Of a stretch of DNA of 64,000 nucleotides, positions 22,267-34,537 are shown piece after piece. Positions within the stretch are counted from its first letter, which is position 1; each line of letters begins with the position of its first letter. A program made the position numbers and the translations under genes. This DNA comes from an uncultured bacterium (GTDB lineage: Bacteria; Armatimonadota; UBA5829), in the NCBI GenBank assembly GCA_938074205.1, contig CALJES010000012.1, positions 278,840 to 342,839 of the forward strand, given 5' to 3'. The notes under the pieces are model-generated. The model did not search any database, was not told where the DNA came from, and saw only the letters and a program-made list of their open reading frames with translations.

Positions 22267-25200
22267 ATGTTCAAACGGAATAAAGTGGCGAAGAAAATGG
22301 GTGCTCCAGCATTTTCCAATCAAGAAACGACAAGACGATTCATAGATAACTGTATCAGCGCATTGGAAGACGAAATCCAAGCCGCTGAACACACCGGAGG
22401 TTCCAAAAGGACAGTCGCACTAGCTAACGGACGCTTTCAAAGAACGATTGATCGAACTCATATATACGTGTTTGTAGCATCTGATGGCATGCCGCCGTCC
22501 TACGAAGATGCTCCTGTGCAAATATTGGTTTCAGGACAGGAGATAGACGGATCTGTTGTAGGCATAGAGGAGTTTGAGGTGATAATTGCTCTCGAAGAAT
22601 ACGTGGGAATGTACGTAGCTACAGCAGAACTCGTCGTCGACCTAACGTTCATACTTGAGAAGCTCAGAGAGCTTTTGACTGAGCGGGCCTCTGCTTTAGA
22701 GGTCCACGATGTAACCCTGAAAGTCTTTGGATTTGGTCAGCCACGTATCTCTTTAAGTTCTGCAAAACACCTTTCTGCTGACGAATGTTACATGAACGAA
22801 GCCCAGAAGCACGCATTGGGCAAGTGTCTAGGCAGCGACTTCGTAATGGTTTGGGGACCTCCCGGTACAGGAAAAACGCACGTTTTGGCGAGGGTTCTCG
22901 GCGAGCAGATTTTGCAAGGACAGTCCATTGCTCTACTCTCGAACACTAACATCGCTGTAGACCAAGCGCTTGAGCAGCTACTTAAACTCTGTGAAAATAA
23001 CGAAAGACTCAAGTGTTTGAAAGACGAAGGAAAGATAATACGCTTGGGCACACCTCAATTGGAAAGCGTCTTATCCATTACTCTCGATAGGATGGCTGAA
23101 CGCATAGCGTCCCAATTGAAAGACGAACTAACAAGGCTAAAGCGGCGCCGGGATAGACGAACTAAACGCTTGGAACAAGTGAGGTCGAGGATTAAAAGGC
23201 TTAGGGAATTGCTGGAGTTACATCGTAGACTCAATGAAGTAGTGGACTCGGAAAAACGCATTGCCCACGAGCTGAAAAAAGTGTGCCACCAATACCACGT
23301 GCTTGCAGACGAGCTTCTTGCGCTAAATTTGCGACTGTCCGTCATCCAAAAAAGGCGCCGCCTGCTACGCCTGATATACAGGTCCAAACAGCGCCGCTTG
23401 GAGCAGCTCGTGACTCAAAAAGAAGAGGGTTGCAGAAAAATAAACGAGAATATGCGTAAGTTAACCGAAAAAGTCTTGGCTCACCGCGCTGAGGTCGAAA
23501 AACTTCGCCAACGGATGGCCACCTTGACAAATGGCGTAGTCGATCCAGCGAAATGGGAAACCTGTCTGGCTCGGCTTACAAGTCTTGAGACGAGGCTACA
23601 AAATGAGATGGCCATCTTCGCAGCGAGAATCCACGAGCTTGAAATCGCTCTCCAGACAGTTGAAGCAAGAATTCTTAACGAGGCTCTCCTTGTAGGGTGT
23701 ACCTGCGCTAAGAGCACCCTCGACGTTAATGTCAGTAGCCGTAGGTTTTCAACGGTGGCTGTAGATGAATCCAGTATGGTCTCCCTTCCGCAAACACTCT
23801 GGTGTACGAACTTGGCTAATAAAAGGTTCCTTTGTTTTGGGGACTTTCGCCAGTTGCCACCGATCACCTTGATCAAACCAGATTCTGGGCAGGAGTCATA
23901 TGAGATCATGCATAGTAGCATATTCGAAAGACATCGGTTGGGCGAGAGTTTACAGGACGCCCTTGGGGATCCGCGGGTAGCTTTGCTAAATGAACAATAT
24001 CGTATGAATCCAGAAATATGTGAGCTCGTGAACAAATGGATGTATGGGGGCCGCTTGATTACGGTACCTGGGACCGGCTGCGGAGCTATGCTGTCCCAGG
24101 ATCCACCTCTTGCACTGGTTGACACGTCGTTATTTGGTGCATGGAGCGACAAGAACGCGGATTTTTCGTGGTACAATTGGCACCACGCATTTGTGGTGCT
24201 GGAACTCGTGCGAGAATTGAGAAATGATTCAGGTGCCCAGGCAGATCAAGGTGCGCTAGTGCTGATACTTACGCCGTACCGCGCTCAGGTTCGCCTAATT
24301 CGAGCATTGCTGGAAGAAGCAGACCTTCAAGAGAACGCGAGAGTATCAACCGTCTGGGGTTGCCAAGGAACAGAAGCAAGCGTTGTCATATTTGATACCG
24401 TGTGTGCCCCTCCGTACAGCAAACCGGGACGATGGTTTCTGCATGAACCGGGGCCAGCGGACGGTGCCAGGTTAATTAACGTCGCCATAACAAGAGCCAA
24501 GGACAAGTTGTATATAGTGGGGCATAGGCAGCACCTTGTGCGGAGCTGCCCATCAACCGCGTTCATAAGGAAAATTCTGGATTGCTTAATCGCAAATGAC
24601 CATATTATCGATTCACGGGAAATCGCGAAAAACTTGATACCGGAAGAACCAGCCGACGATGGTGGCTTTCCTATTGGCGCATTTGGGACTGCCTCGTTCA
24701 AGTTGTTCGACCAAGAGACGTTTCTAGAGGCGTTTATAAGCGATCTTTGTCAACTTCCGCCAGGATCGCGGATAACCATCTTCCGGCCGTTCTTAAGTGG
24801 GGAATCCTTTGCACGTTGCAAGTCGCATTTTTGCACATTGCTCAAAAATGGCTGCAGCATCGAGCTATTTACACGAGATCGCTCTGCGCAGAACAGGGGC
24901 AGGCCACTCGACGCTGTCGATTCTATGATTGATGAGCTGGAAAGATTGGGGGCAAAGGTTGGGATAGATTCGTATCTGCGGGGCCAAAGATTCGAGCACC
25001 ACAAGTTGGCTTTTCTCGAGTACCCGCAGGAATCAGACCGAAGAAGCGAACCTGTTATCTGGATCGACAGCAAAAGGATTCTTGGTCACCGCTCTGGTTG
25101 GGAGACTATGCTGCGAATTCAGTCGCGCAATGTGTACAGCGTCTTTGCGAGTATCATCGGTTTAGAAGACCGGCGCAAGCACGTACCAGTACACGTTTTG

Positions 25201-25521
25201 ATAAGCAAACTGGAGAACACACTTCAGCGACAGCTGCAAGCAATTTGTCCTGTTCACAAATTACACATGAAGCTTCGTTTCTCGGTTAGAAGTAGTAAAA
25301 AGTCATTTTTTATGTGTTGTCCTACGTGGAGCAAAAGCAGATGTGACCAGAAGATGAATGTGTCGGTTGAAGAGCTTAACAAAGCTCTGGAGTTCATTCG
25401 GGCGACGTGCTTGGAACCCGGCTGCGACGCTCCGTTGGATGCAAGACGAGGTCGTGAAGGCATATACATAAGGTGCTCCGAAGGACACTATGTCCCCCTT
25501 ATTTCATACTTCCGTAGATAA
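22267..25521 (+). CDS. Upf1-like (DNA2/NAM7) SF1 helicase with a roughly 250-aa coiled-coil insertion and a roughly 330-aa C-terminal region with an HxK motif and a Cys/His cluster.
   Basis: Helicase motifs are I 'GPPGTGKT', II 'VAVDESSMV', III 'GDFRQLPPI', IV 'LNEQYRMNPEI', V 'ILTPYRAQV' and 'VWGCQGTEASVVIFD', and VI 'INVAITRAKDKLYIVG'. A heptad-rich Arg/Leu/Glu segment sits between motifs I and II. The C-terminal region contains 'FEHHKLAFLEY' and 'CCPTWSKSRC...CLEPGC...CSEGH'. Confidence 0.7.
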   Translation: MFKRNKVAKKMGAPAFSNQETTRRFIDNCISALEDEIQAAEHTGGSKRTVALANGRFQRTIDRTHIYVFVASDGMPPSYEDAPVQILVSGQEIDGSVVGIEEFEVIIALEEYVGMYVATAELVVDLTFILEKLRELLTERASALEVHDVTLKVFGFGQPRISLSSAKHLSADECYMNEAQKHALGKCLGSDFVMVWGPPGTGKTHVLARVLGEQILQGQSIALLSNTNIAVDQALEQLLKLCENNERLKCLKDEGKIIRLGTPQLESVLSITLDRMAERIASQLKDELTRLKRRRDRRTKRLEQVRSRIKRLRELLELHRRLNEVVDSEKRIAHELKKVCHQYHVLADELLALNLRLSVIQKRRRLLRLIYRSKQRRLEQLVTQKEEGCRKINENMRKLTEKVLAHRAEVEKLRQRMATLTNGVVDPAKWETCLARLTSLETRLQNEMAIFAARIHELEIALQTVEARILNEALLVGCTCAKSTLDVNVSSRRFSTVAVDESSMVSLPQTLWCTNLANKRFLCFGDFRQLPPITLIKPDSGQESYEIMHSSIFERHRLGESLQDALGDPRVALLNEQYRMNPEICELVNKWMYGGRLITVPGTGCGAMLSQDPPLALVDTSLFGAWSDKNADFSWYNWHHAFVVLELVRELRNDSGAQADQGALVLILTPYRAQVRLIRALLEEADLQENARVSTVWGCQGTEASVVIFDTVCAPPYSKPGRWFLHEPGPADGARLINVAITRAKDKLYIVGHRQHLVRSCPSTAFIRKILDCLIANDHIIDSREIAKNLIPEEPADDGGFPIGAFGTASFKLFDQETFLEAFISDLCQLPPGSRITIFRPFLSGESFARCKSHFCTLLKNGCSIELFTRDRSAQNRGRPLDAVDSMIDELERLGAKVGIDSYLRGQRFEHHKLAFLEYPQESDRRSEPVIWIDSKRILGHRSGWETMLRIQSRNVYSVFASIIGLEDRRKHVPVHVLISKLENTLQRQLQAICPVHKLHMKLRFSVRSSKKSFFMCCPTWSKSRCDQKMNVSVEELNKALEFIRATCLEPGCDAPLDARRGREGIYIRCSEGHYVPLISYFRR

Positions 25522-25540: not shown

Positions 25541-27004
25541 TTACTCGGACGAATTCGCCAACAGCTCGCATATCTTGTTCTGCACAGCCGTTGCAGCGCT
25601 ATTTGGGCAAGGGTGGTTGTTCATCAGTATGGAGAATACCAGCGGTTCGCCGGACTTTGTTGTGAGGTAACCTGAGAGACTGCTTACTCTGCTTAAATAC
25701 CCCGTTTTTGCGCGAACGTTGTTCTCCGCAGACGTGCCCTTCATCCTATTCTTCAGAGTGCCGTCTACGCCGGCCAACGGTAGCGAATCTATGAACGCAC
25801 GGGCATGCGGATGACGATACATATGACTCAAAAGCTCAACCAAGCTCCTCGCGGTCACACAGTTCAGCCTGGAAAGACCCGACCCGTCGGCTATATAAAT
25901 GCCGCCGAGGTCAATGCCTATCTGAGTCATGAATTCCTTCTCGACTTCACGGCCGCACTCAGCTGAGCCCTTTCCCTTAACAAATGCGCCCAGCGTTTTT
26001 AGAAGAATCTCAGCTATGAGGTTGTCGCTGGGCTTGTTGAGAAGCTCGAGAATTTTCGATAACGGTGGGGAAACATGCTCGCACAGCAACGTTGCATCGC
26101 TCGGAATTTTGCCGCGTTTAACTTCACCCTCCACTACTATGCCCTGCTTGTGAAGTTCATTCTTAAACACGTGACCAGTGTAAAGAGCCGGCTCGTGAAT
26201 GGTAATAATCGCTTCCGAGGCAGTAACTTTCGTCCCCACAGGTATGCTACCGCCCGCTCGGATTATATTGGTGCCCAGAACCCTATAGACCCAGACGGTT
26301 TTCTGTGAATCGGTCTCTCCTGTTATCGGACAGCTCTCAATCTGCAAGAACGAGTTGACGGGATCCAGTTGCACGATTGCTGGATCCCCAGGTTTCTTGC
26401 CAGGGTAGACCCACACGTTTACGACGTTTCGGTTAAGGTTCAGCGCAGTTATCTCTGCTGAGTAGTAATAACACAGGTCGTTCCACGGCCAACCTGTTCC
26501 AAGCCGACAGTCATCAAATAGAGAATCGTCCACGATCAAATCACCCGTTACCTTCTTGATGCCCTGGGTTTTCAGTTTTTGGGCCATCTCCACCAGATCG
26601 TTGGTTTCCAGGGTCGGATCGCCGCCGCCCACTAACGCAATAGAACCCTTGACCAAACCGTGTGGGTTCACTGGCGCGCATGTAAACACCTTGGTGACGT
26701 ATGTAAAATCCGGCCCCAGGCGGTCAAGCGCGGCAGCAGAGACTAGGAGCTTCATATTTGAAGCCGGGATCATAGCCAGATCAGCATTCCGTTCATACAG
26801 GGTTTTGCCAGTCTGCAGAGATTTTACCAAGACTGCTTGGATGCCGTGATTTAGGTTCGGATCGGCGAGCATTTGATCGATCTGGTGATGCAGACTATTT
26901 GCTTGTGCATAAGTCGCAATCCAAACCGCGAGAATGCACCATAGGAGTACTAAGCGCGCCCTGCGATACGAGACTGCTGATAGTCTTCGATTGCTCCTGT
27001 TCAT
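25541..27004 (-). CDS. dacB: D-alanyl-D-alanine carboxypeptidase/endopeptidase (peptidase S13, PBP4/DacB).
   Basis: A signal peptide is followed by the S13 active-site region 'PASNMKLLVSAAAL' (SxxK). Confidence 0.8.
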   Translation of the reverse strand: MNRSNRRLSAVSYRRARLVLLWCILAVWIATYAQANSLHHQIDQMLADPNLNHGIQAVLVKSLQTGKTLYERNADLAMIPASNMKLLVSAAALDRLGPDFTYVTKVFTCAPVNPHGLVKGSIALVGGGDPTLETNDLVEMAQKLKTQGIKKVTGDLIVDDSLFDDCRLGTGWPWNDLCYYYSAEITALNLNRNVVNVWVYPGKKPGDPAIVQLDPVNSFLQIESCPITGETDSQKTVWVYRVLGTNIIRAGGSIPVGTKVTASEAIITIHEPALYTGHVFKNELHKQGIVVEGEVKRGKIPSDATLLCEHVSPPLSKILELLNKPSDNLIAEILLKTLGAFVKGKGSAECGREVEKEFMTQIGIDLGGIYIADGSGLSRLNCVTARSLVELLSHMYRHPHARAFIDSLPLAGVDGTLKNRMKGTSAENNVRAKTGYLSRVSSLSGYLTTKSGEPLVFSILMNNHPCPNSAATAVQNKICELLANSSE

Positions 27005-27526
27005 CTAGCTCAACTCCATTGGCTACTGCCGGTGTATACCATTCGCTTCGATACCATGCCTGTCCATAAGTTAGTGAAGCCGGTTTAGCCCGCTAGGCAT
27101 CGAACGATGCCGTGTGTGAAACGCTTATAGTAATATGGTCTGGAAAAACAGACGATTGCTACCTTGCTATTCACATTATACGCCAGCCTGGACAGCAAAA
27201 GCTGGCGCGAACACCGGATGTCGCAAAATTTATCTCATTCTCCTCACCTTCGAGCACCTTGGAAGCTATTGGAATGGCAGTCGGAGTAAACCACCGATGG
27301 TCATTTCAAAGTTTGATATCTACCGTTTACGGCTCAATGTGAAAGTTCTTATCCGCATCATCCAGGCGGCAAAGCGTATCCTGAGCTGACTCCAGTCCCT
27401 AGTGAATGCCAGGGTCAAGCTAAGGCGAACTCTTCCAGGTCATTGCTAAGTCCAGCGGACAGGTGTAGGGTGACTTTTCTTTTGTATAATGCGGTGCAAA
27501 TGCGCTGGATGCAGGATCAAAAACGC

Positions 27527-28099
27527 TCAGCTGCGTCGCTCTCTTACGGGCCCAAGGGATATGTCTATGTCATCAGTCAGAAGCTCAGAACCACTCTGTC
27601 GCGCCTGGATCTCACCGCGCCTAGAATCCTCAACTGTCAGCAGGATAGAGCGTGTTCCTAAAGGAAACGATTTTTGATTTCGGCGCGCCCAAGCCGCAGC
27701 ATCTTTGTTTACGGGGCTTGCCAAGTTGTAGCTTTTGTACTGGATCATATCGGCGATGTGAACAATGACATCTACCAAAGTAACACCAGGAGACCAGTAA
27801 TCGCCTATGCAGACGTAATCTCCTATGTTCGGGTGCCATATCGGGGTGCGCATCGTGCATCTTGGACCCTGCCTCGGGTAACCGGTCGACAGTACTATAT
27901 CCACAACGTGCTTCTCTGACACCACAGCTCTACTCGATGCCTCATCCCAAACAAGTCCCGTCAGCCTGTAAGTAACTCGGTAATACCAAGGCGGGTTACC
28001 CTGAATCGGTTCTACACACACAAACTCGTTGCCGGAAAGTTCCGATAAGATCTTTTCGTATTCGCGACGCAGACGCCTTGTCCGAATTGTCTCGCTCAC
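27527..28099 (-). CDS. Prokaryotic ubiquitin-conjugating enzyme (E2/UBC fold) homolog.
   Basis: The UBC signature is 'RLRREYEKI...YPRQGPRCTMRTPIWHPNIGDYVCIGDYWSPGVTL'. This gives the HPN motif, a candidate catalytic Cys 7 residues later, and WSP. Confidence 0.75.
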   Translation of the reverse strand: MSETIRTRRLRREYEKILSELSGNEFVCVEPIQGNPPWYYRVTYRLTGLVWDEASSRAVVSEKHVVDIVLSTGYPRQGPRCTMRTPIWHPNIGDYVCIGDYWSPGVTLVDVIVHIADMIQYKSYNLASPVNKDAAAWARRNQKSFPLGTRSILLTVEDSRRGEIQARQSGSELLTDDIDISLGPVRERRS

Positions 28100-28114
28100 G
28101 ATACCGCACCTGCC

Positions 28115-29536
28115 TCACTTTGGCTTTCCCAGACTTGCGCAGATACGCTTGACCTTCCGCCGGTCGCTTTCAGACAGCGCATGGAAAAGTCTGTCATACG
28201 GCTCTTCGCGACAGATCACTCCGTAAGCTATCTCCCGACTTCGTTCACCGCGTAGCCACCGAACAGCTTTCTCATGCCAAGCGTTCGAACCATGCTCGTC
28301 ATGAACAGCTACGCTTAGCTTCAGCGACCGCACAATGTCCCTTACGCGGCAGGCTCTCTCGATCCGCTTCTCACGGCTTGCAGCCGCCCGCTTGTAGACT
28401 TGGAGGGCTTGTTTAACGTAGTCCGGCGAGGCTACAATAATATCAGGTCGACGACTATTGGATGTGAATGAGCTTTCTATGTCTTTCACCAGCGACGGTT
28501 CCTGCGCCCGCGGTAGCTGCCGGGCGAGACGCGCCGCTGCAGCTAACTGCAAGTTGATTCTATCGAGCTTTTCACCCTCTTCGTTGCCAATTTCGCTATC
28601 GGACAGCGCCGCGCTTACACGCTGAAACTCCAAAAACGCTTGTCGGTTTTCCGGGTTAGCTGAAAGTTCGAGCCTAAGCAACCTCTCACCGCCTGTAAGA
28701 TCACCTATCGAAAGCATTTCAATAGCGGTTTCCAGGTACGTAGTAGGATGTGTTGCCTGCCTCCCGCGGAAAACGACAAGCCACAAAGCGATCTGCGAAG
28801 CCGCCAATAGTATAATTAGTGACCAGATAATCCCAGGAACTCTACCGACGTTAAGGCGATTATTCATTTGTGCTGGTCCTCTAGCCGTGACCGTGGAATG
28901 ATCTGACGTTGCAGATAGCTCCCTCATACATTCCCGCAGTGCTTCTTCATTGCTGCGTGGGGCGAATACATAGAATCCGGAAATGCGTACAAGAGACTCC
29001 TGCGACCACTCAAAAATAGCCCATTCGCCCAACTTGGAGTCGACAACCATCGCTATCTGGTAGGAATCAGCGAAGTAGTGCTGGTGAATGAATTCGTCTT
29101 CCTTGGAAAGAAACGCTCCTAGCCCTGGGTGGCTGTGATACCAACCAACGATTCTCTCGCGTGAGTACCGCTGGGCAAGCTGCGCGTGCACCTGCTCCCA
29201 AGCCTCGTGGGTGAAAGTGAGCGATATACCGGTGCTTTCGGCCATCTCTGCTCGGATAATGTCGTTGACCTGAATAAAGTAACCCCTGCCAAACTTGCAG
29301 AACTCGCCTACCAACACTCCGCCGAGCTCACGCTCCGGATCTGCGAGAAGATGTTCCCTAATTGCCCGGACAGCTTGTTCACTGATGAAAACGGGATACA
29401 AATCATCGGCCGGCTGACCGCACGCGCAAACTCTCATCGCCCTGTTTTCAAGTGGGCTCTTTCTTTTGACGGCAGATAAGCGAGTTGACCTGCCTAGCTC
29501 CAGTTGTATGTCGTCGTTCTCTTCTTCGCGCTGCAT
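28115..29536 (-). CDS. JAB/JAMM (MPN+) metallo-isopeptidase with a TM helix and a roughly 220-aa C-terminal extension.
   Basis: JAMM motifs are 'ELGGVLVGE', 'HSHP' and 'SKED'. The predicted TM is 'VPGIIWSLIILLAASQIALWLVVF'. Confidence 0.75.
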   Translation of the reverse strand: MQREEENDDIQLELGRSTRLSAVKRKSPLENRAMRVCACGQPADDLYPVFISEQAVRAIREHLLADPERELGGVLVGEFCKFGRGYFIQVNDIIRAEMAESTGISLTFTHEAWEQVHAQLAQRYSRERIVGWYHSHPGLGAFLSKEDEFIHQHYFADSYQIAMVVDSKLGEWAIFEWSQESLVRISGFYVFAPRSNEEALRECMRELSATSDHSTVTARGPAQMNNRLNVGRVPGIIWSLIILLAASQIALWLVVFRGRQATHPTTYLETAIEMLSIGDLTGGERLLRLELSANPENRQAFLEFQRVSAALSDSEIGNEEGEKLDRINLQLAAAARLARQLPRAQEPSLVKDIESSFTSNSRRPDIIVASPDYVKQALQVYKRAAASREKRIERACRVRDIVRSLKLSVAVHDEHGSNAWHEKAVRWLRGERSREIAYGVICREEPYDRLFHALSESDRRKVKRICASLGKPK

Positions 29537-29554
29537 ACTCTCGAATGTGTCGAT

Positions 29555-30061
29555 TCAGATCACAAGCCGGATCAAGAAGACGATCCCGCTTGAGCTGATA
29601 CTGAAGAGCACAACCGCTGGTCCAAAGCAGTTTTCGAAAAAGCGGTTTTCCCTAGCTGTGAAACGACAGTGCACACAAATGATCTGATTCTGCTTCACCG
29701 GTCTTCCGCACTTTATGCACCGCAGAGGCTGATCACTTTCGTCTGTCAGGTCTGTAGGCGCAATGACAATACGGCCCTCTGCAGTAGGCGAAATGCGATC
29801 AGAGATCTGCCGGTTCCATATTGCCCAACCGTCGCAGCCGTATACAGAGCAGCGGCCGTTGGACTTCCAGCACTCAGCATGATGCATTACGCCGCACTTG
29901 GGACAGCGTATCGCTTCTTCTTTCGATTCGATCGGACTTAGACAGTATGGGCAGTTCAGGCTTTCGTTTGTTGATCTCACCTTTCCACTCGATCGAACGC
30001 TTTGGGTAGTTGGTCTATGGTATCGAGGCTGCCGGTAGGAACCGCCGCCACTATCAGCCAA
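29555..30061 (-). CDS. Membrane-anchored C4HC3 RING-variant-like zinc-finger protein (paralog 2), with a second CxxC...CxxC ribbon and a C-terminal TM.
   Basis: Cys/His spacing is 'CPYC..(13)..CPKCGVMHHAECWKSNGRCSVYGC', then 'CIKCGRPVKQNQIICVHC', then the hydrophobic tail 'AVVLFSISSSGIVFLIRLVI'. The 5' end overlaps the upstream paralog by 85 nt, so the true start may be internal or non-ATG. Confidence 0.5.
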   Translation of the reverse strand: MADSGGGSYRQPRYHRPTTQSVRSSGKVRSTNESLNCPYCLSPIESKEEAIRCPKCGVMHHAECWKSNGRCSVYGCDGWAIWNRQISDRISPTAEGRIVIAPTDLTDESDQPLRCIKCGRPVKQNQIICVHCRFTARENRFFENCFGPAVVLFSISSSGIVFLIRLVI

Positions 30062-30459
30062 GCTAACAGAACTGCTGAGACGAGCAACATAATCAGTATA
30101 GGTCCCACGTTCTTTGCGTCCTGGTGTTCTAGGATAGATGTGGGCCTACACGTATTGCAGTAGAGTTCCCCTGGAGGAACCTGCTTCCCGCAGTGCACAC
30201 ACGGGTTGGAAACGCTCATCGCTTTTCTGTTACTTGCAGATTCGACTGCCTCACGCGTTAGAAGGAGTCTACTCCTTGCCGGTGGTGTATCGAAGTTGAT
30301 TTCGATTATCCGTCTTGCTTTGGGACATTCCTTTGCACAGCAGCCGCGGTGCTCTTCCCAACAATCGAAGTGATACACCGAGCCGCATGCGTCGCAGGTC
30401 ACAGTTTTTTCCTGCAGGGCAATTTCGCTCATACAATAGCGACAACTTCTGTCTGCCAC
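29977..30459 (-). CDS. Membrane-anchored C4HC3 RING-variant-like zinc-finger protein (paralog 1).
   Basis: Cys/His spacing is 'CRYC..(12)..CDACGSVYHFDCWEEHRGCCAKEC', then 'CVHCGKQVPPGELYCNTC', then the TM 'ILIMLLVSAVLLAWLIVAAV'. Confidence 0.55.
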   Translation of the reverse strand: MADRSCRYCMSEIALQEKTVTCDACGSVYHFDCWEEHRGCCAKECPKARRIIEINFDTPPARSRLLLTREAVESASNRKAMSVSNPCVHCGKQVPPGELYCNTCRPTSILEHQDAKNVGPILIMLLVSAVLLAWLIVAAVPTGSLDTIDQLPKAFDRVER

Positions 30460-30509
30460 TTCTGCTCACGTGTTAAAGTCGTTTGCTACGCGCCGCGCAA
30501 GCTATTCTC

Positions 30510-31721
30510 TTACGAACCCGGCAGTACGGATTTGGCATCTGATGATATCTCAATCTGCACGCAGCCTCTTTGCGATACCGCAGGAAGAATCTCCAATTGA
30601 CCAAAACCAAGCTCTTTTAGTGTGATATCTTCGTAGGGCGCGCCGCGCATATACTCGACATCTACTTCCGGCAGTCGCTCTGCGCCGCAGTCGGGACATC
30701 TTGCCTCTTCAGCGCGGATGCTATGTGCCAATCGGTAGAACGGTTGCGTGGAGCCACACCGATTGCACTTAAGTGATTTTACCATCTCAGAAGGTAGACC
30801 AATCACAGGGTTTGCACCCACGTAACGTGTTGCGAGATCCGCAACCTCAGCCAGCGTTGCTGATTCGCTGTTGAGCTGGGTTTCTACGATGTTTTCGAAC
30901 AACTCGTGGCTCATGCAGTCTTCGTTTCTCACGTAGTCAATAATGAAGCAGTCGTAGGTTGTGGCGTCAAAGTAGAAAGCCTTCCCGACCAGGGTAGGGC
31001 TCAGCCTCTGTCCTGGCGTTTGCAGGCAGGAGCGCGAGTGCAAGAGCTTTACGGCTTCGTGTACCTGGATGCCGGCTATTATGGATGCCATTGTAGGCGT
31101 CGTAGGAGTCCTGTCTTGAATATGAGCTTGAGCTGCCAGGATACCGCACGACTCACGCCACGCCATAATTTTTCTGTCCTGTTCGCCGAGCGTACACTCG
31201 TAGCAAGGGGTATCTGGGGGCACGAAGCTGCGCACAATACCGCGAGTGTCATCGACCGCTCCATCTACCCAGGGTGTGCCAACCTTCCAGCAAGCTCGGT
31301 TGATTGCAAGCCGCGCCTCACGGTTATCCAGTCCGCCGATCACGACATCCACGCGCCTGAAAATGCCAAGACCGATGTCCCTAGTTACATCAGCCTCCAG
31401 GCCGATGAACCGGCAGTCAGGATTCAGCGCCTCAGCTGCGCTCGCCGCTACTTGGGCTTTGGGCTTGCCTTCGTCTTGGGCTCTGAATAATGGACTTCGC
31501 GAAAGGTTGGAGAGCTCAACACGATCGAAGTCGACTATGATCACCGTCCCTGCGCCCAATAGTGCAAGGTTCTTTATTATCTCATTGCCAAGCGCACCGG
31601 CTCCAACGACCATGATTGATGCGGCGCGTAGGACGTCTTGGTTCCACCAGGAGATCAAGCGTAAACGCCAATATCGATCTTCTCCGATGTCAATCGGGAA
31701 GTGGGATTTCTCAGCAGACAC
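30510..31721 (-). CDS. E1-like adenylating enzyme (ThiF/MoeB/UBA family) with a C-terminal zinc-ribbon extension.
   Basis: The nucleotide-binding motif is 'VVGAGALGNEIIKNLALLGAGTVIIVDFDRVELSNLSRS'. CxxC is 'CYEC', and a later ribbon reads 'CNRCG...CPDCG'. The gene overlaps the Ubl gene by 11 nt. Confidence 0.8.
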   Translation of the reverse strand: MSAEKSHFPIDIGEDRYWRLRLISWWNQDVLRAASIMVVGAGALGNEIIKNLALLGAGTVIIVDFDRVELSNLSRSPLFRAQDEGKPKAQVAASAAEALNPDCRFIGLEADVTRDIGLGIFRRVDVVIGGLDNREARLAINRACWKVGTPWVDGAVDDTRGIVRSFVPPDTPCYECTLGEQDRKIMAWRESCGILAAQAHIQDRTPTTPTMASIIAGIQVHEAVKLLHSRSCLQTPGQRLSPTLVGKAFYFDATTYDCFIIDYVRNEDCMSHELFENIVETQLNSESATLAEVADLATRYVGANPVIGLPSEMVKSLKCNRCGSTQPFYRLAHSIRAEEARCPDCGAERLPEVDVEYMRGAPYEDITLKELGFGQLEILPAVSQRGCVQIEISSDAKSVLPGS

Positions 31722-31998
31722 AAAAGCACCCGCCTGCGGTGATCTCAGGTATTAGTCTGAGAACGTCCCCGTCTAGGACGTTGCATTCTGAAAGCGTGAG
31801 ATTGTCCAGCAAATGCCTGCCGGTTCCTTTGTGCAGGAGTTTGTAAGAAATCGGCGCGCCTGCGGTGTTGACCACTGGTAGGTAAAGAACCTCGACTAGT
31901 TTGTCAATAATTCTACTGATAGGCACGTCGTCTGGGAGCGTCGCATCTTGTTCTTTGCTTCCCGTTACGTCTATGATTGTGACGTTAACCTTACCCAT
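31711..31998 (-). CDS. Ubiquitin-like beta-grasp protein (95 aa) ending in ...AGG followed by a CFCVC tail.
   Basis: The beta-grasp pattern is 'KVNVTIIDVTGSKEQDATLPDDVPISRIIDKLVEVL...GDVLRLIPEITAGG'. A penultimate diglycine precedes a 5-residue Cys-rich extension. It is the first gene of the operon and overlaps E1. Confidence 0.6.
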   Translation of the reverse strand: MGKVNVTIIDVTGSKEQDATLPDDVPISRIIDKLVEVLYLPVVNTAGAPISYKLLHKGTGRHLLDNLTLSECNVLDGDVLRLIPEITAGGCFCVC

Positions 31999-32171
31999 TG
32001 GTGTTCACATTCCAATTCGGTTAATATTTCAGACGTTACATCGAGCAGAGTTGCCGAGATCTTGGCGTCCGCGTATTCGCCGCACCGCGGAAACCTTCCC
32101 TGCTGTATTATACCTCATTCCGTTAGTAAGATTCTTGGCGAATCAACAGGGAAGGGATGTTTTGCAGTACG

Positions 32172-32200
32172 TTGACAACCGTAAAACCTGATGTTATTCT
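32172..32200 (+). promoter_or_regulatory. Candidate sigma70 promoter (TTGACA-N17-TATTCT) for the GAF-PP2C gene, followed by a GC hairpin in the 5'UTR.
   Basis: I read ttgaca at 32172-32177 and tattct at 32195-32200. The hairpin CCTCGCGC...GCGCGAGG lies at 32201-32234. Confidence 0.3.
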
Positions 32201-32248
32201 CCTCGCGCTGCTGGTCTGAGTCGCGGCGCGAGGCAGCAAAAGAAGAAC

Positions 32249-34537
32249 ATGGAGAAACAGTCAATGCTCAAGGGAGTAGCACGCGCGGATGGGAGTGATT
32301 TCCCTGAAGACAGATACACTGCTATAGTGGCGCTATCGCATCTTTCTGAGAGGTTGGCTTCCGTAGAGTCGAAAAAGGCTTTCGTCATAGCTGCAGAAAC
32401 GGCCGCCACCTTGCTCCGAATGTCTTCTGTGCTCATATTTACAAAGGAAACCGACGGCCGGCTTGAGCTCCAGGCAGTGTATGCTGATTCGGCATCTGAA
32501 GAACTGGTCAGCGCATCGGGCAAAATAGCTCAGGAAGCGCTGAGTGTCAGCTCGCCGCTTTTGATTCCCAACACCGCGGCAACATCTTCTACTGCCGCGA
32601 AAATTATCCAGCGCAACGGGGTAGCGTCCTTGATATGTGTGCCAATGAGAATCGGCGGAACGGCATTGGGGGCGATCGTATGCCTTTCCGAGCAGGTCCG
32701 CAGTTTTTCACCGAGAGACATCGAACTCTTACACGTGATCGCATCTCATGCTGCCATAGCGGCGATGCGAACGAGAGCAGGCACCGAACGGCAGACACTA
32801 CCCAGCAGCGATGATCTTCTGGCGCTTGCGGACAGAAAGATTCGAGAGCTCTCGCTTCTCAACCAAATAAGCGAGGCAATGAACTCCACGTTGGAGCTCG
32901 ATGCGGTGCTCGACATCGCTTTGGAAGAATGCCTCGCGGCGATAGACGCCGACGCCGGCTCGCTGATGTTGATAAACGAGGATACGGGCAAGCTTGAGAT
33001 CGCGGCGTCGCGTGGTCTGCCGGAGGAACTGGTCGAGTCTACCTCGCAGGAGATCGGGCAGAGTATTGCCGGCTGGGTGGCTGAGCACGGTGAGAGCGTT
33101 CTCGTTACGGACGCACGCAATGACGACCGTTTTGAGATGCCATTCTATCGCGATGCCATCACTTCGTCCGCCTCGGTGCCGCTGAAGTCCAGAAACGGCT
33201 GCATTGGCGTGCTCAACGTTAACACTACGCGGCCTGATCGGATCTTCGACGAACGCGACCTCCAGTTTCTACAGACTATAGCAAACCAAATGGCTGCTGC
33301 TATCCAGAACGCCAGACTCTACACGCGCGTTCGCCGACGAACCCAACAACTCGACGGCTTGCTGAGGGTTTCGCGCAGCGTGACCTCCACGCTGAGCTTG
33401 GAAGATCGCTTGAAGCTCTTGAGCGAGGAAATGTGTAAGCTGCTGGAGTTTGATGTCTGCGTGATATTCCTAGTGGACGAAATTACAGGCAGGCTGCGGC
33501 ACGGAGTCGGCAGAGGGCTGAGAACGCGCTACAGATTCACCTACTATAACTTAGCAAATCCTCTGGCCCAGAAGGTTCTCAAAACGCGCAGAACGGTGTA
33601 TTTGAAGGATATCAATTCTTCGCCCACTGCGGCAAGCGATGTGTCGAAATCGGAGCGATTGACGTGTGCATTGGGACTGCCGCTGAGGAGCAATGGGAGG
33701 ATAGTAGCTGTTGCAACGCTTTTCGCTCGGGCTCCGCAAGAGCTACCACCGTCCAGACGTGCAGCATTGAAAATGCTAGCCGACTTGGCGGGCGTTGCCA
33801 TACACAACGCTTTGGCATATCAAAATAAGTATAGAGTGGCTTCATTGGTTCAAAGCAGGTTGGTACCCGCCGACGCCCCGACGGTTGACGGGCTCGAGAT
33901 AGGGCATAAGTTCTTCTCGGTGCGCGAGGTGGGCGGCGATTACTACGATTTCATTGTGCTTAATGATCGGCAGATCGGGATTGTAGTCGCCGATGTTTCG
34001 GGAAGCGATGTAGAAGCTGCCGAACACACCGCCATGAGCAGGCATGTTATACGTGCCTACGCACGGGAGTTTCCGCGTCCCGCTGATGTGCTCTATAAGA
34101 CGAACAACGTTATTTGCGAACTGACAAGTGCCGAGACGTTCGTAAGTGCATTCTACTGTGTAATCGACTTGGGTCGCGAGTGCTTCACGCACGCCAACGC
34201 CGGCTGTGAACCCCCGCTTCTCTACTGCGCAGCTCACGGAAACGTTCGGGACCTGCACACAAGCGGTGTTCTGCTCGGAGTAGCTGCAGGAATGCAATAC
34301 GCGGAGCAAGAGGTGTCCTTCAGATCTAAAGACGTTCTTGTCGCGTTCACCGACGGTGTAACTGAAGCATCCTGTGGTAATTCTCGTTTTGGAACGGACG
34401 CAGTGAAGCGCGTATTGTCGGCTAACGCTCATCTGGGTGCCCAGGCGATCGCGGACAAGCTCTTCGACGCTATTATGGAGTTTACCAACGGCAAGGTTTC
34501 CGATGACGTAGCGGTAGTCGTGGCAAAACGAGTGTAG
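32249..34537 (+). CDS. Multi-GAF-domain PP2C-type serine phosphatase (SpoIIE/RsbU family).
   Basis: The 762-aa product has 3 or more GAF-like segments. The C-terminal PP2C/SpoIIE domain carries 'GGDYYDF', 'VADVSG' and 'FTDGVTEA'. Confidence 0.75.
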   Translation: MEKQSMLKGVARADGSDFPEDRYTAIVALSHLSERLASVESKKAFVIAAETAATLLRMSSVLIFTKETDGRLELQAVYADSASEELVSASGKIAQEALSVSSPLLIPNTAATSSTAAKIIQRNGVASLICVPMRIGGTALGAIVCLSEQVRSFSPRDIELLHVIASHAAIAAMRTRAGTERQTLPSSDDLLALADRKIRELSLLNQISEAMNSTLELDAVLDIALEECLAAIDADAGSLMLINEDTGKLEIAASRGLPEELVESTSQEIGQSIAGWVAEHGESVLVTDARNDDRFEMPFYRDAITSSASVPLKSRNGCIGVLNVNTTRPDRIFDERDLQFLQTIANQMAAAIQNARLYTRVRRRTQQLDGLLRVSRSVTSTLSLEDRLKLLSEEMCKLLEFDVCVIFLVDEITGRLRHGVGRGLRTRYRFTYYNLANPLAQKVLKTRRTVYLKDINSSPTAASDVSKSERLTCALGLPLRSNGRIVAVATLFARAPQELPPSRRAALKMLADLAGVAIHNALAYQNKYRVASLVQSRLVPADAPTVDGLEIGHKFFSVREVGGDYYDFIVLNDRQIGIVVADVSGSDVEAAEHTAMSRHVIRAYAREFPRPADVLYKTNNVICELTSAETFVSAFYCVIDLGRECFTHANAGCEPPLLYCAAHGNVRDLHTSGVLLGVAAGMQYAEQEVSFRSKDVLVAFTDGVTEASCGNSRFGTDAVKRVLSANAHLGAQAIADKLFDAIMEFTNGKVSDDVAVVVAKRV

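Follow-up and report, generated by a model that had tools for sequence, protein, structure and literature searches.

Whether bacteria run a full eukaryote-style cascade of E1, E2 and RING proteins is the question raised by an operon on a 64,000-nucleotide stretch of DNA from an uncultured bacterium of the Armatimonadota (lineage UBA5829; assembly GCA_938074205.1, contig CALJES010000012.1, positions 278,840 to 342,839), referred to below as the window. The operon is a complete and compact example that includes a classical HPN-type E2. An earlier note, made from the DNA alone, had singled out its last gene (27527..28099) as encoding a genuine E2 with the UBC fold. This E2 is not isolated, as it is part of a complete Ubl-E1-RING-RING-JAB-E2 cassette, in which Ubl stands for ubiquitin-like protein, of an already predicted kind. 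Judging from sequence and structural modelling, it is likely to be competent for catalysis and to act as the classical HPN-type conjugating enzyme in a Ubl modification system that is self-contained and membrane-associated. To our knowledge, no RING E3 is part of the bacterial conjugation systems proven so far, namely type II CBASS, Bil and Bub, whose E2s are diverged.

Active site and fold of the E2

The gene and the elements of its active site are located as follows.

27527..28099, minus strand: E2 (UBC-fold ubiquitin-conjugating enzyme homolog), 190 residues, GTG start, last gene of the cassette
27776..27841, minus strand: E2 active-site segment IWHPNIGDYVCIGDYWSPGVTL, residues 87-108, which includes the loop-7 W-S-P-G
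27827..27835, minus strand: HPN of the E2, residues 89-91
27809..27811, minus strand: candidate catalytic Cys97 of the E2

A check proposed in the earlier note, the search of the product against the Pfam family UQ_con (PF00179), gives 41.0 bits for a gathering cutoff of 27 (E=1.8e-10), with a match spanning residues 64-145, that is, positions 47-132 of the 140 in the profile. Against the PDB, phmmer retrieves 246 E2 chains headed by Entamoeba EhUbc5 (4gpr, 8e-8), followed by UBE2E, Ubc12, Ubc9, Ubc4/5 and Ubc13. When a profile of 39 homologs is used instead, the best match improves to 1.5e-9 and only classical E2s are returned. The alignment of the 39 homologs shows no variation at H89, P90, N91, C97, W102, N125, S128 and P129, nor in the N-terminal helix at R6, R9 and L10, and S103-P104 complete the W-S-P loop in the window E2. 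The eukaryotic UBC signature (consensus 'HPNI...G.ICLDIL...WSPA') that the earlier note had read in this open reading frame (ORF) is thus borne out, and the match to it is far beyond chance. Pairwise alignment places the Cys two residues closer to HPN than in eukaryotic E2s, and the Trp three residues closer to the Cys.

The protein has 190 residues and carries no E1 domain, so that the earlier note was right in describing a stand-alone E2 rather than an E1-E2 fusion as in Cap2. Its 99 close homologs (46-79% identity) are mostly 180-190 residues long, and some of them are already labelled 'ubiquitin-conjugating enzyme E2 [Armatimonadota bacterium]' by NCBI.

Structure prediction, named in the earlier note as a ground on which its claim could fail, returns the UBC fold. 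The AlphaFold2 model, built from the 39-sequence homolog alignment, has a mean pLDDT of 79.8 and a pTM of 0.73, with core blocks mostly above 90. In the model, residues 5-21 form a helix, the stretch from 27 to 83 contains a β-sheet, and further helices cover 108-119 and 132-140. A Foldseek search of the PDB with this model gives 334 matches at E<=0.001, of which the top 50 are without exception classical E2s (probability 1.0, target-normalised TM-scores of 0.62-0.69), many of the top matches being RING-bound complexes, including those of UbcH5 and Ubc13. Among predicted viral structures, the E2s of African swine fever virus (ASFV) and of giant viruses lead, and the E2 domain of CBASS present in that library comes at rank 26 with a probability of 0.25 and a TM-score of 0.25. 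Profile match, invariant catalytic residues and predicted fold together support the assignment as a bona fide UBC-fold E2.

Organisation and conservation of the operon

Six genes, co-directional and all encoded by the minus strand, follow one another in the order Ubl-E1-RING1-RING2-JAB-E2, so that the E2 gene comes last; all five protein families pass their Pfam gathering scores.

31711..31998, minus strand: Ubl (YukD-type β-grasp), 95 residues, Pfam YukD 53.6 bits
30510..31721, minus strand: E1 (ThiF-family adenylating enzyme), 403 residues, Pfam ThiF 182 bits
31146..31157, minus strand: R-E-S-C of the E1 with the candidate catalytic Cys192
29977..30459, minus strand: RING1 (Prok-RING_1), 160 residues, 30.7 bits for a cutoff of 29.1
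29555..29980, minus strand: RING2 (Prok-RING_1), 141 residues from the GTG at 29980, 37.2 bits for a cutoff of 29.1
28115..29536, minus strand: JAB/JAMM metallopeptidase, 473 residues, Pfam JAB and Prok-JAB, N-terminal JAB domain
29096..29137, minus strand: H134-S-H-P...S144..D147 of the JAB
28769..28840, minus strand: transmembrane helix of the JAB, residues 233-256

The genes are closely packed. Ubl and E1 overlap by 11 nucleotides, 50 nucleotides separate E1 from RING1, the RING1 stop and the RING2 start overlap in GTGA, and gaps of 18 and 15 nucleotides precede JAB and E2, respectively. On the 3' side of the E2, a gap of 522 nucleotides leads to a gene for a PBP4-type carboxypeptidase. The earlier note had placed the E2 at the end of the operon, which agrees with this arrangement and with the order kept in the closest relatives.

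Relatives were sought in one genome per GTDB species, and 142 species-representative genome stretches encode relatives of the E2. They belong to the Armatimonadota, which include the closest ones, the Abditibacteriota, WS1, many Clostridia and some Actinomycetota, with cultured hosts such as Clostridium weizhouense, Tissierella creatinini, Anoxynatronum sibiricum and Lachnospiraceae MC2017. Searched against 1.84 billion representative proteins, the E2 profile reaches E<=1e-10 for 1133 clusters (50% identity), and E<=1e-30 for 262 of them. Eighty-five related loci were analysed (L001-L085, L001 being the contig of the window), and phmmer searches of their six-frame ORFs with the six window proteins found a JAB in 75, a RING in 74, an E1 in 73 and a Ubl in 69. 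All components are present in nearly every locus that has sufficient flanking sequence, and the Ubl-E1-RING-RING-JAB-E2 order is kept in the closest Armatimonadota loci. Beyond the six genes, no conserved neighbour was found in the 84 other loci.

The partner proteins

The Ubl has a family-invariant end, L-R-L-x-x-E-I-T-A-G89, of which G89 is encoded at 31732..31734. Most homologous Ubl ORFs end directly after EITAG; the window Ubl goes on with six further residues, GCFCVC, that overlap the E1 start. Since G89 is invariant and G90 is not, the mature end would be Gly89, and trimming would be needed.

In a number of relatives, the Ubl forms the N-terminal domain of proteins of 200-500 residues (L041, L058, L063, L064, L070-L072, L074, L076 and L079; L042, L046, L062 and L078), the junction lying directly after the invariant EITAG and being followed by a Zn ribbon or a transmembrane segment. 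These fusions resemble eukaryotic ubiquitin-fusion precursors, which implies an obligatory processing by the JAB.

The E1 carries Zn ligands C173/C176/C269/H272 and a C-terminal Zn ribbon (C319/C322/C342/C345). Across 68 homologs, both the four-Cys ribbon and Cys192, which stands in R-x-S-C just past the C173-x2-C176 zinc pair, are invariant. In the PDB, the E1 sequence best matches the active adenylation domains, those of UBA7, UBA1, SAE2 and UBA3, above ThiF/MoeB. Among NCBIfam models, those of ThiF/MoeB are the nearest, every score being below its cutoff.

Bacterial RING proteins of the Prok-RING_1 family reportedly carry transmembrane helices. RING1 consists of a RING-like finger at residues 6-44, a Zn ribbon and a transmembrane segment at about 118-140, whereas RING2 has a predicted C4-H-C3 cross-brace (residues 10-49), another Zn ribbon (88-105) and a transmembrane segment at 119-141, its 23 C-terminal residues. 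The longest ORF of RING2 extends to 30061. Its start was set at the GTG at 29980 because that ORF overlaps RING1 by 85 nucleotides and because 49 homologs have 140-142 residues. The GTGA overlap with the RING1 stop suggests that RING2 is translationally coupled, and public gene calls of the same contig omit this gene. The C-x2-C / C-x2-C / H-x2-C / C..C pattern is invariant in the 49 homologs, and the best PDB match of the RING2 profile is the RING-H2 finger of EL5 (E=0.005), which supports the assignment of RING2 to the cross-brace class at the level of sequence.

In the JAB, the JAMM set E70, H134, H136, S144 and D147 is invariant in 72 homologs. A hydropathy scan finds a single hydrophobic segment in each of the JAB and the two RINGs, at the positions given above, and no membrane segment in the Ubl, the E1 or the E2. 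The roughly 215 residues of the JAB that lie past its transmembrane helix (about 257-473; 28115..28768, minus strand) have no match in Pfam, NCBIfam or PADLOC. They may form an extracytoplasmic sensing domain, because Clostridia carry LysM at this place.

The C-terminal tail of the E2

Past the UBC core, the E2 continues into a tail that the earlier note had described as acidic, about 50 residues long and possibly involved in partner binding.

27530..27664, minus strand: E2 C-terminal tail, residues 146-190 (45 residues), a variable linker with a conserved motif at its end
27536..27574, minus strand: E2 C-terminal linear motif DDIDISLGPVRER, residues 176-188

The tail itself stands, with 45 residues; the acidic character does not hold for the window E2, in which the charge is about neutral (8 D+E and 7 K+R), although the tails of the family are acidic overall (median of -0.13 charge per residue). 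In the AlphaFold2 model, residues 157-179 are disordered (pLDDT <50). The conserved end reads DDIDISLGPxRxR in the window and D-D-x-D-I-x-L-G-P-x-R-x-R in the 39-homolog alignment, where I180, L182, G183 and P184 are nearly invariant.

An acidic-hydrophobic motif is present, once to three times, past the UBC core of nearly all E2s of the family, as in 'DLYQPEVDIDLL...EEDDLGIELL'. Its core, D-Φ-x-I-x-Φ, was searched as [DE][ILVF]x-I-x-[LFIVM] and occurs in 55 of 89 E2 tails, for 2.6 expected from composition-preserving shuffles (maximum of 9 in 500), an enrichment that is somewhat inflated because the pattern was defined after the data had been viewed. The same core is found in the acidic N-termini of FHA-membrane proteins of related loci, in which the FHA domain is C-terminal and the motif may be repeated, as in 'DTLVIEFDDL...DTLVIELGPED'. 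The proteins concerned are the following.

L003, 12048..13328: FHA-membrane protein with the motif
L013, 11341..12435: FHA-membrane protein with the motif
L017, 10533..12566: FHA-membrane protein with the motif
L020, 4377..6080: FHA-membrane protein with the motif
L025, 1592..2860: FHA-membrane protein with the motif

The presence of one motif in both E2 tails and FHA-membrane N-termini suggests a docking motif shared within the system. Partner binding by the tail is plausible from its sequence, and the motif probably docks a component of the system. As a first guess, this partner could be the Ubl, which would be bound by a strand addition analogous to that of SIM and AIM motifs; the E1 or a RING are alternative candidates.

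Variant loci in relatives

The operon is enlarged in many relatives. The recurrent additions, seen in 52 loci, include secreted trypsin-like proteases and FHA-membrane proteins. Four representative proteins, one for each of the commonest clusters of extra genes, have no match among the window ORFs (the first of these clusters mixes FHA-membrane and secreted-protease sequences), so that the window operon looks minimal.

In most Clostridia loci (L038-L085), the E2 is a protein of 550-700 residues with a C-terminal FHA domain, a phospho-threonine-binding module. Thus, the E2 of Clostridium weizhouense (L039, 9992..11734) has 580 residues and ends with such a domain, and its gene is followed by those for a Trypsin_2 protease, a DUF2628-containing RING and a JAB with LysM at its end. 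Homologs of the protease in other related loci are probably secreted, as their N-termini are hydrophobic and signal-peptide-like. These extra modules of the Clostridia point to a Ubl conjugation coupled to phospho-signalling and to the cell envelope. Expanded loci also exist in Armatimonadota (L003/L004, L013-L016, L018, L021, L023, L026, L030 and L035), where the E2 is present as two paralogs, the RING genes number three to five and the JAB genes two or three; L003/L004 additionally include M48 peptidase, VWA and FHA genes.

Proposed pathway and cellular role

From the domains present, we infer the following chemistry. The JAB/JAMM protease would remove the six-residue extension of the Ubl precursor and expose Gly89 (...EITAG). 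This glycine would then be adenylated by the E1, which would hold the Ubl as a thioester on Cys192 before its transfer to Cys97 of the E2. The contact of the E2 with the E1 is likely to involve its basic N-terminal helix, in which the invariant R6, R9 and L10 are located. The two tail-anchored RINGs would recruit the charged E2 on the cytoplasmic side of the membrane and help it to pass the Ubl on to lysines of the targets, and the same membrane-anchored JAB could undo the modification.

As a best guess, the system would serve to regulate envelope or membrane proteins, or to control their quality, and not as a signal for proteasome-type degradation, because relatives add an E2-fused FHA domain, a secreted trypsin-like protease and a LysM-tailed JAB. 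It is conceivable, though doubtful, that the whole family, with its members in Armatimonadota, many gut and rumen Clostridia and some Actinomycetota, performs a RING-E3-dependent ubiquitination at the cytoplasmic membrane. Its parts would be wired by the acidic-Φ-x-I-x-Φ motif of E2 tails and of the cytoplasmic N-termini of FHA-membrane proteins, which would bind the YukD-type Ubl in a SIM/AIM-like manner. In relatives, a coupling to phospho-threonine reading (E2-FHA) and to extracytoplasmic modules (LysM-JAB, secreted protease) would make it a device for trans-envelope signalling or quality control. Such a RING-E3-dependent machine, if real, would be the first eukaryotic-type E1-E2-E3 cascade in bacteria.

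Several observations weigh against the pathway proposed above. The literature search found no experimental evidence of thioester formation or conjugation by any bacterial member of the RING-containing operon type. A clear fourth, C-terminal helix is not evident in the E2 model. According to the alignment and the consensus, the E2 has Arg/Lys at the position equivalent to the loop-4 Phe62 of UbcH5, which we take to be a RING contact, and for this reason the E2-RING interface may depart from the classical one. The AlphaFold2 model of RING2 (pLDDT 75) gives only local, non-significant Foldseek matches (E>=0.29), among which PHD and RING-H2 fingers are undistinguished; as this model does not separate the two classes, the putative E3 activity is assigned from family membership. 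At the level of the DNA, a scan of 26900-32400 for intrinsic terminators and promoters yields counts no higher than in shuffled sequence, with nothing past the E2 stop and no convincing promoter. The 146 nucleotides over the E2 stop and downstream do not fold more stably as RNA than shuffles do (z=+1.25).

Alternative explanations

The same biochemistry could serve anti-phage defence in the manner of Bil, the Ubl being put on phage proteins upon infection. Indeed, the operons of E1, E2 and Ubl characterised in bacteria so far, namely those of type II CBASS and of Bil, belong to defence systems (PMC11601596, PMC11601603). The present type is spread sporadically over phyla, its E1 weakly matches the PADLOC models of the Cap2 E1-E2 and of BilD, and a gene for an MkoA/MkoC-like helicase (PADLOC 2e-61) lies with a PIN_3 gene about 2 kb from the operon. 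However, these two genes stand next to the operon in none of the 84 other loci, and PADLOC returns nothing for the E2, the Ubl or either RING. The surroundings, with argG, argH and PBP4, are those of housekeeping genes, and the guanine-cytosine (GC) content is flat across the window (0.48-0.55), so that no signature of horizontal transfer is seen in it. Moreover, the modules added in relatives (secreted protease, FHA and LysM) resemble envelope signalling and not defence effectors. A defence function is considered rather unlikely, if less so than the two readings that follow.

A very improbable reading is that the E2 is dead or non-conjugating, as a UEV-like adaptor, or that E1 and Ubl carry out a sulfur transfer like ThiF/ThiS or MoeB/MoaD with the E2 as a scaffold. 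It draws on the descent of E1 and Ubl from sulfur-carrier systems, to which the sub-cutoff NCBIfam matches of the E1 correspond, and on the match of the Ubl to YukD, a family not known as conjugated. Yet Cys97 and HPN are invariant in the 39 homologs, unlike in UEVs, the best solved relatives of the E1 are conjugating E1s, and the operon has no thiamine or molybdopterin genes. A JAMM protease, RINGs and a Ubl with an invariant C-terminal Gly that often needs trimming are sensible together for conjugation only. Finally, the E2 gene could be eukaryotic DNA, acquired by contamination or by a very recent transfer, as the closest solved structures are all eukaryotic E2s (about 23% identity). This explanation is effectively refuted by the GTG start, the distance of 15 nucleotides from the upstream gene in an operon with start/stop overlaps, the uniform composition, the bacterial housekeeping genes on the same contig and the presence of homologs, likewise within such operons, in 142 bacterial species representatives. 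The reading as a conjugating E2 in a membrane-associated Ubl system is preferred.

Relation to described systems

The concept of such an operon is not new, since its type had been predicted by 2011 and Pfam already recognises the protein. Burroughs, Iyer and Aravind (Mol Biosyst 2011) reportedly predicted Ubl-E1-E2-RING-JAB operons, in a work that is said to be the source of the Pfam families Prok-RING_1 and Prok-JAB. The window operon is composed of the same five protein families, and its E2 is classical with HPN. The study of Burroughs et al. 2011 on prokaryotic RING fingers is summed up in a passage of PMC4197634 as describing 'uncharacterized ubiquitylation operons' in diverse bacteria. 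In the same vein, 'complete operons' in bacteria are mentioned in a passage of PMC5654768, and a 'complete prokaryotic Ubl-conjugation' system that has an E3 of the RING type in one of PMC7159879. In the literature found, to which the content of the 2011 paper does not belong, there is no prior description of the AG-ended YukD-type Ubl, of the E2 tail motif or of the FHA fusions in relatives. Going by this search, the value of the locus is that of a compact, complete and widely distributed system of an experimentally untouched bacterial kind. As relatives exist in cultured bacteria, the biochemical question is directly testable, and the operon is relevant to how ubiquitin signalling arose outside the archaeal lineage.

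In the archaeal lineage, the cluster of Candidatus Caldiarchaeum subterraneum encodes Ub, E1, E2, srfp(RING) and Rpn11 (PMC3082918), and its E1/E2/RING cascade was reconstituted in vitro in 2017 (PMC5654768). Like the window operon, this cluster is compact, and it holds a single gene each for the Ubl, the E1, the classical E2, the small RING and the JAMM peptidase. All features listed for its E2 recur in the window E2, namely the N-terminal helix with a conserved Arg, the HPN loop, the catalytic Cys, the loop-7 WSPA/S and the loop-8 Pro. In contrast, the window operon, from a bacterial host, has two RING genes, membrane-anchored RINGs and JAB, a YukD-like Ubl that ends with AG and not GG, and an E2 with a tail of 45 residues and its conserved motif.

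Eukaryotic class I E2s (Ubc4/5 or UbcH5, Ubc13 and UBE2E) are the best sequence and structure matches of the window E2, with which they share HPN, Cys, WSP and the loop-8 N..(D/S)P. The window E2 differs from eukaryotic E2s by an identity of about 23%, by deletions of two and three residues flanking the Cys, by Arg/Lys in place of the loop-4 Phe, by the absence of a clear helix 4 and by its extra tail.

The operons described by Iyer and co-workers in 2006 later became those of CBASS and Bil. They are bacterial operons of E2-like, E1 and JAB proteins whose E2s, including those of the '6d' operon class, are without the classical His (PMC1779556), whereas HPN is invariant in the family of the window E2. 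Conjugation has been demonstrated for type II CBASS, Bil and Bub (PMC11601596, PMC11601603).

Type II CBASS (Cap2/Cap3) has related E1 and JAB folds, and the window E1 matches the PADLOC E1-E2 models with values up to 5.8e-17. Nevertheless, the window operon does not belong to this type, as its E2 and E1 are encoded separately, three genes apart, and neither a CD-NTase nor an effector lies nearby.

In Bil (type I/II), an ISG15-like defence system, BilA is the Ubl, BilB the E2, BilC the JAB and BilD the E1 (PMC11601596). As in the window, separate genes for these four proteins form one operon for a conjugation cascade; Bil has no RING, whereas the window operon has two RING genes. PADLOC gives a weak match of the E1 to BilD (4.6e-10) and generic matches only for the JAB, and neither its models nor those of NCBIfam match the window E2, Ubl or RINGs. 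With no PADLOC match for E2 and Ubl and with two RINGs present, the window operon was not assigned to Bil.

Neighbouring genes

Two further gene groups flank the cassette in the window.

32249..34537, plus strand: GAF-SpoIIE gene, a triple-GAF SpoIIE/PP2C phosphatase, divergent from the operon
22267..25521, plus strand: SF1 helicase, 1084 residues
21732..22211, plus strand: PIN_3 gene, which precedes the SF1 helicase

The SpoIIE/PP2C gene is followed on the contig by one for an RsbW-like HATPase_c_2 protein. It is probably outside the system, because it is common only to the closest relative, L006. The helicase strongly matches the Mokosh proteins MkoA (2e-61) and MkoC (4e-32) in PADLOC, and may form a defence pair with the PIN_3 protein. 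Near its C-terminus, the helicase carries the sequence 'EHHKLAF', an HxK-like motif.

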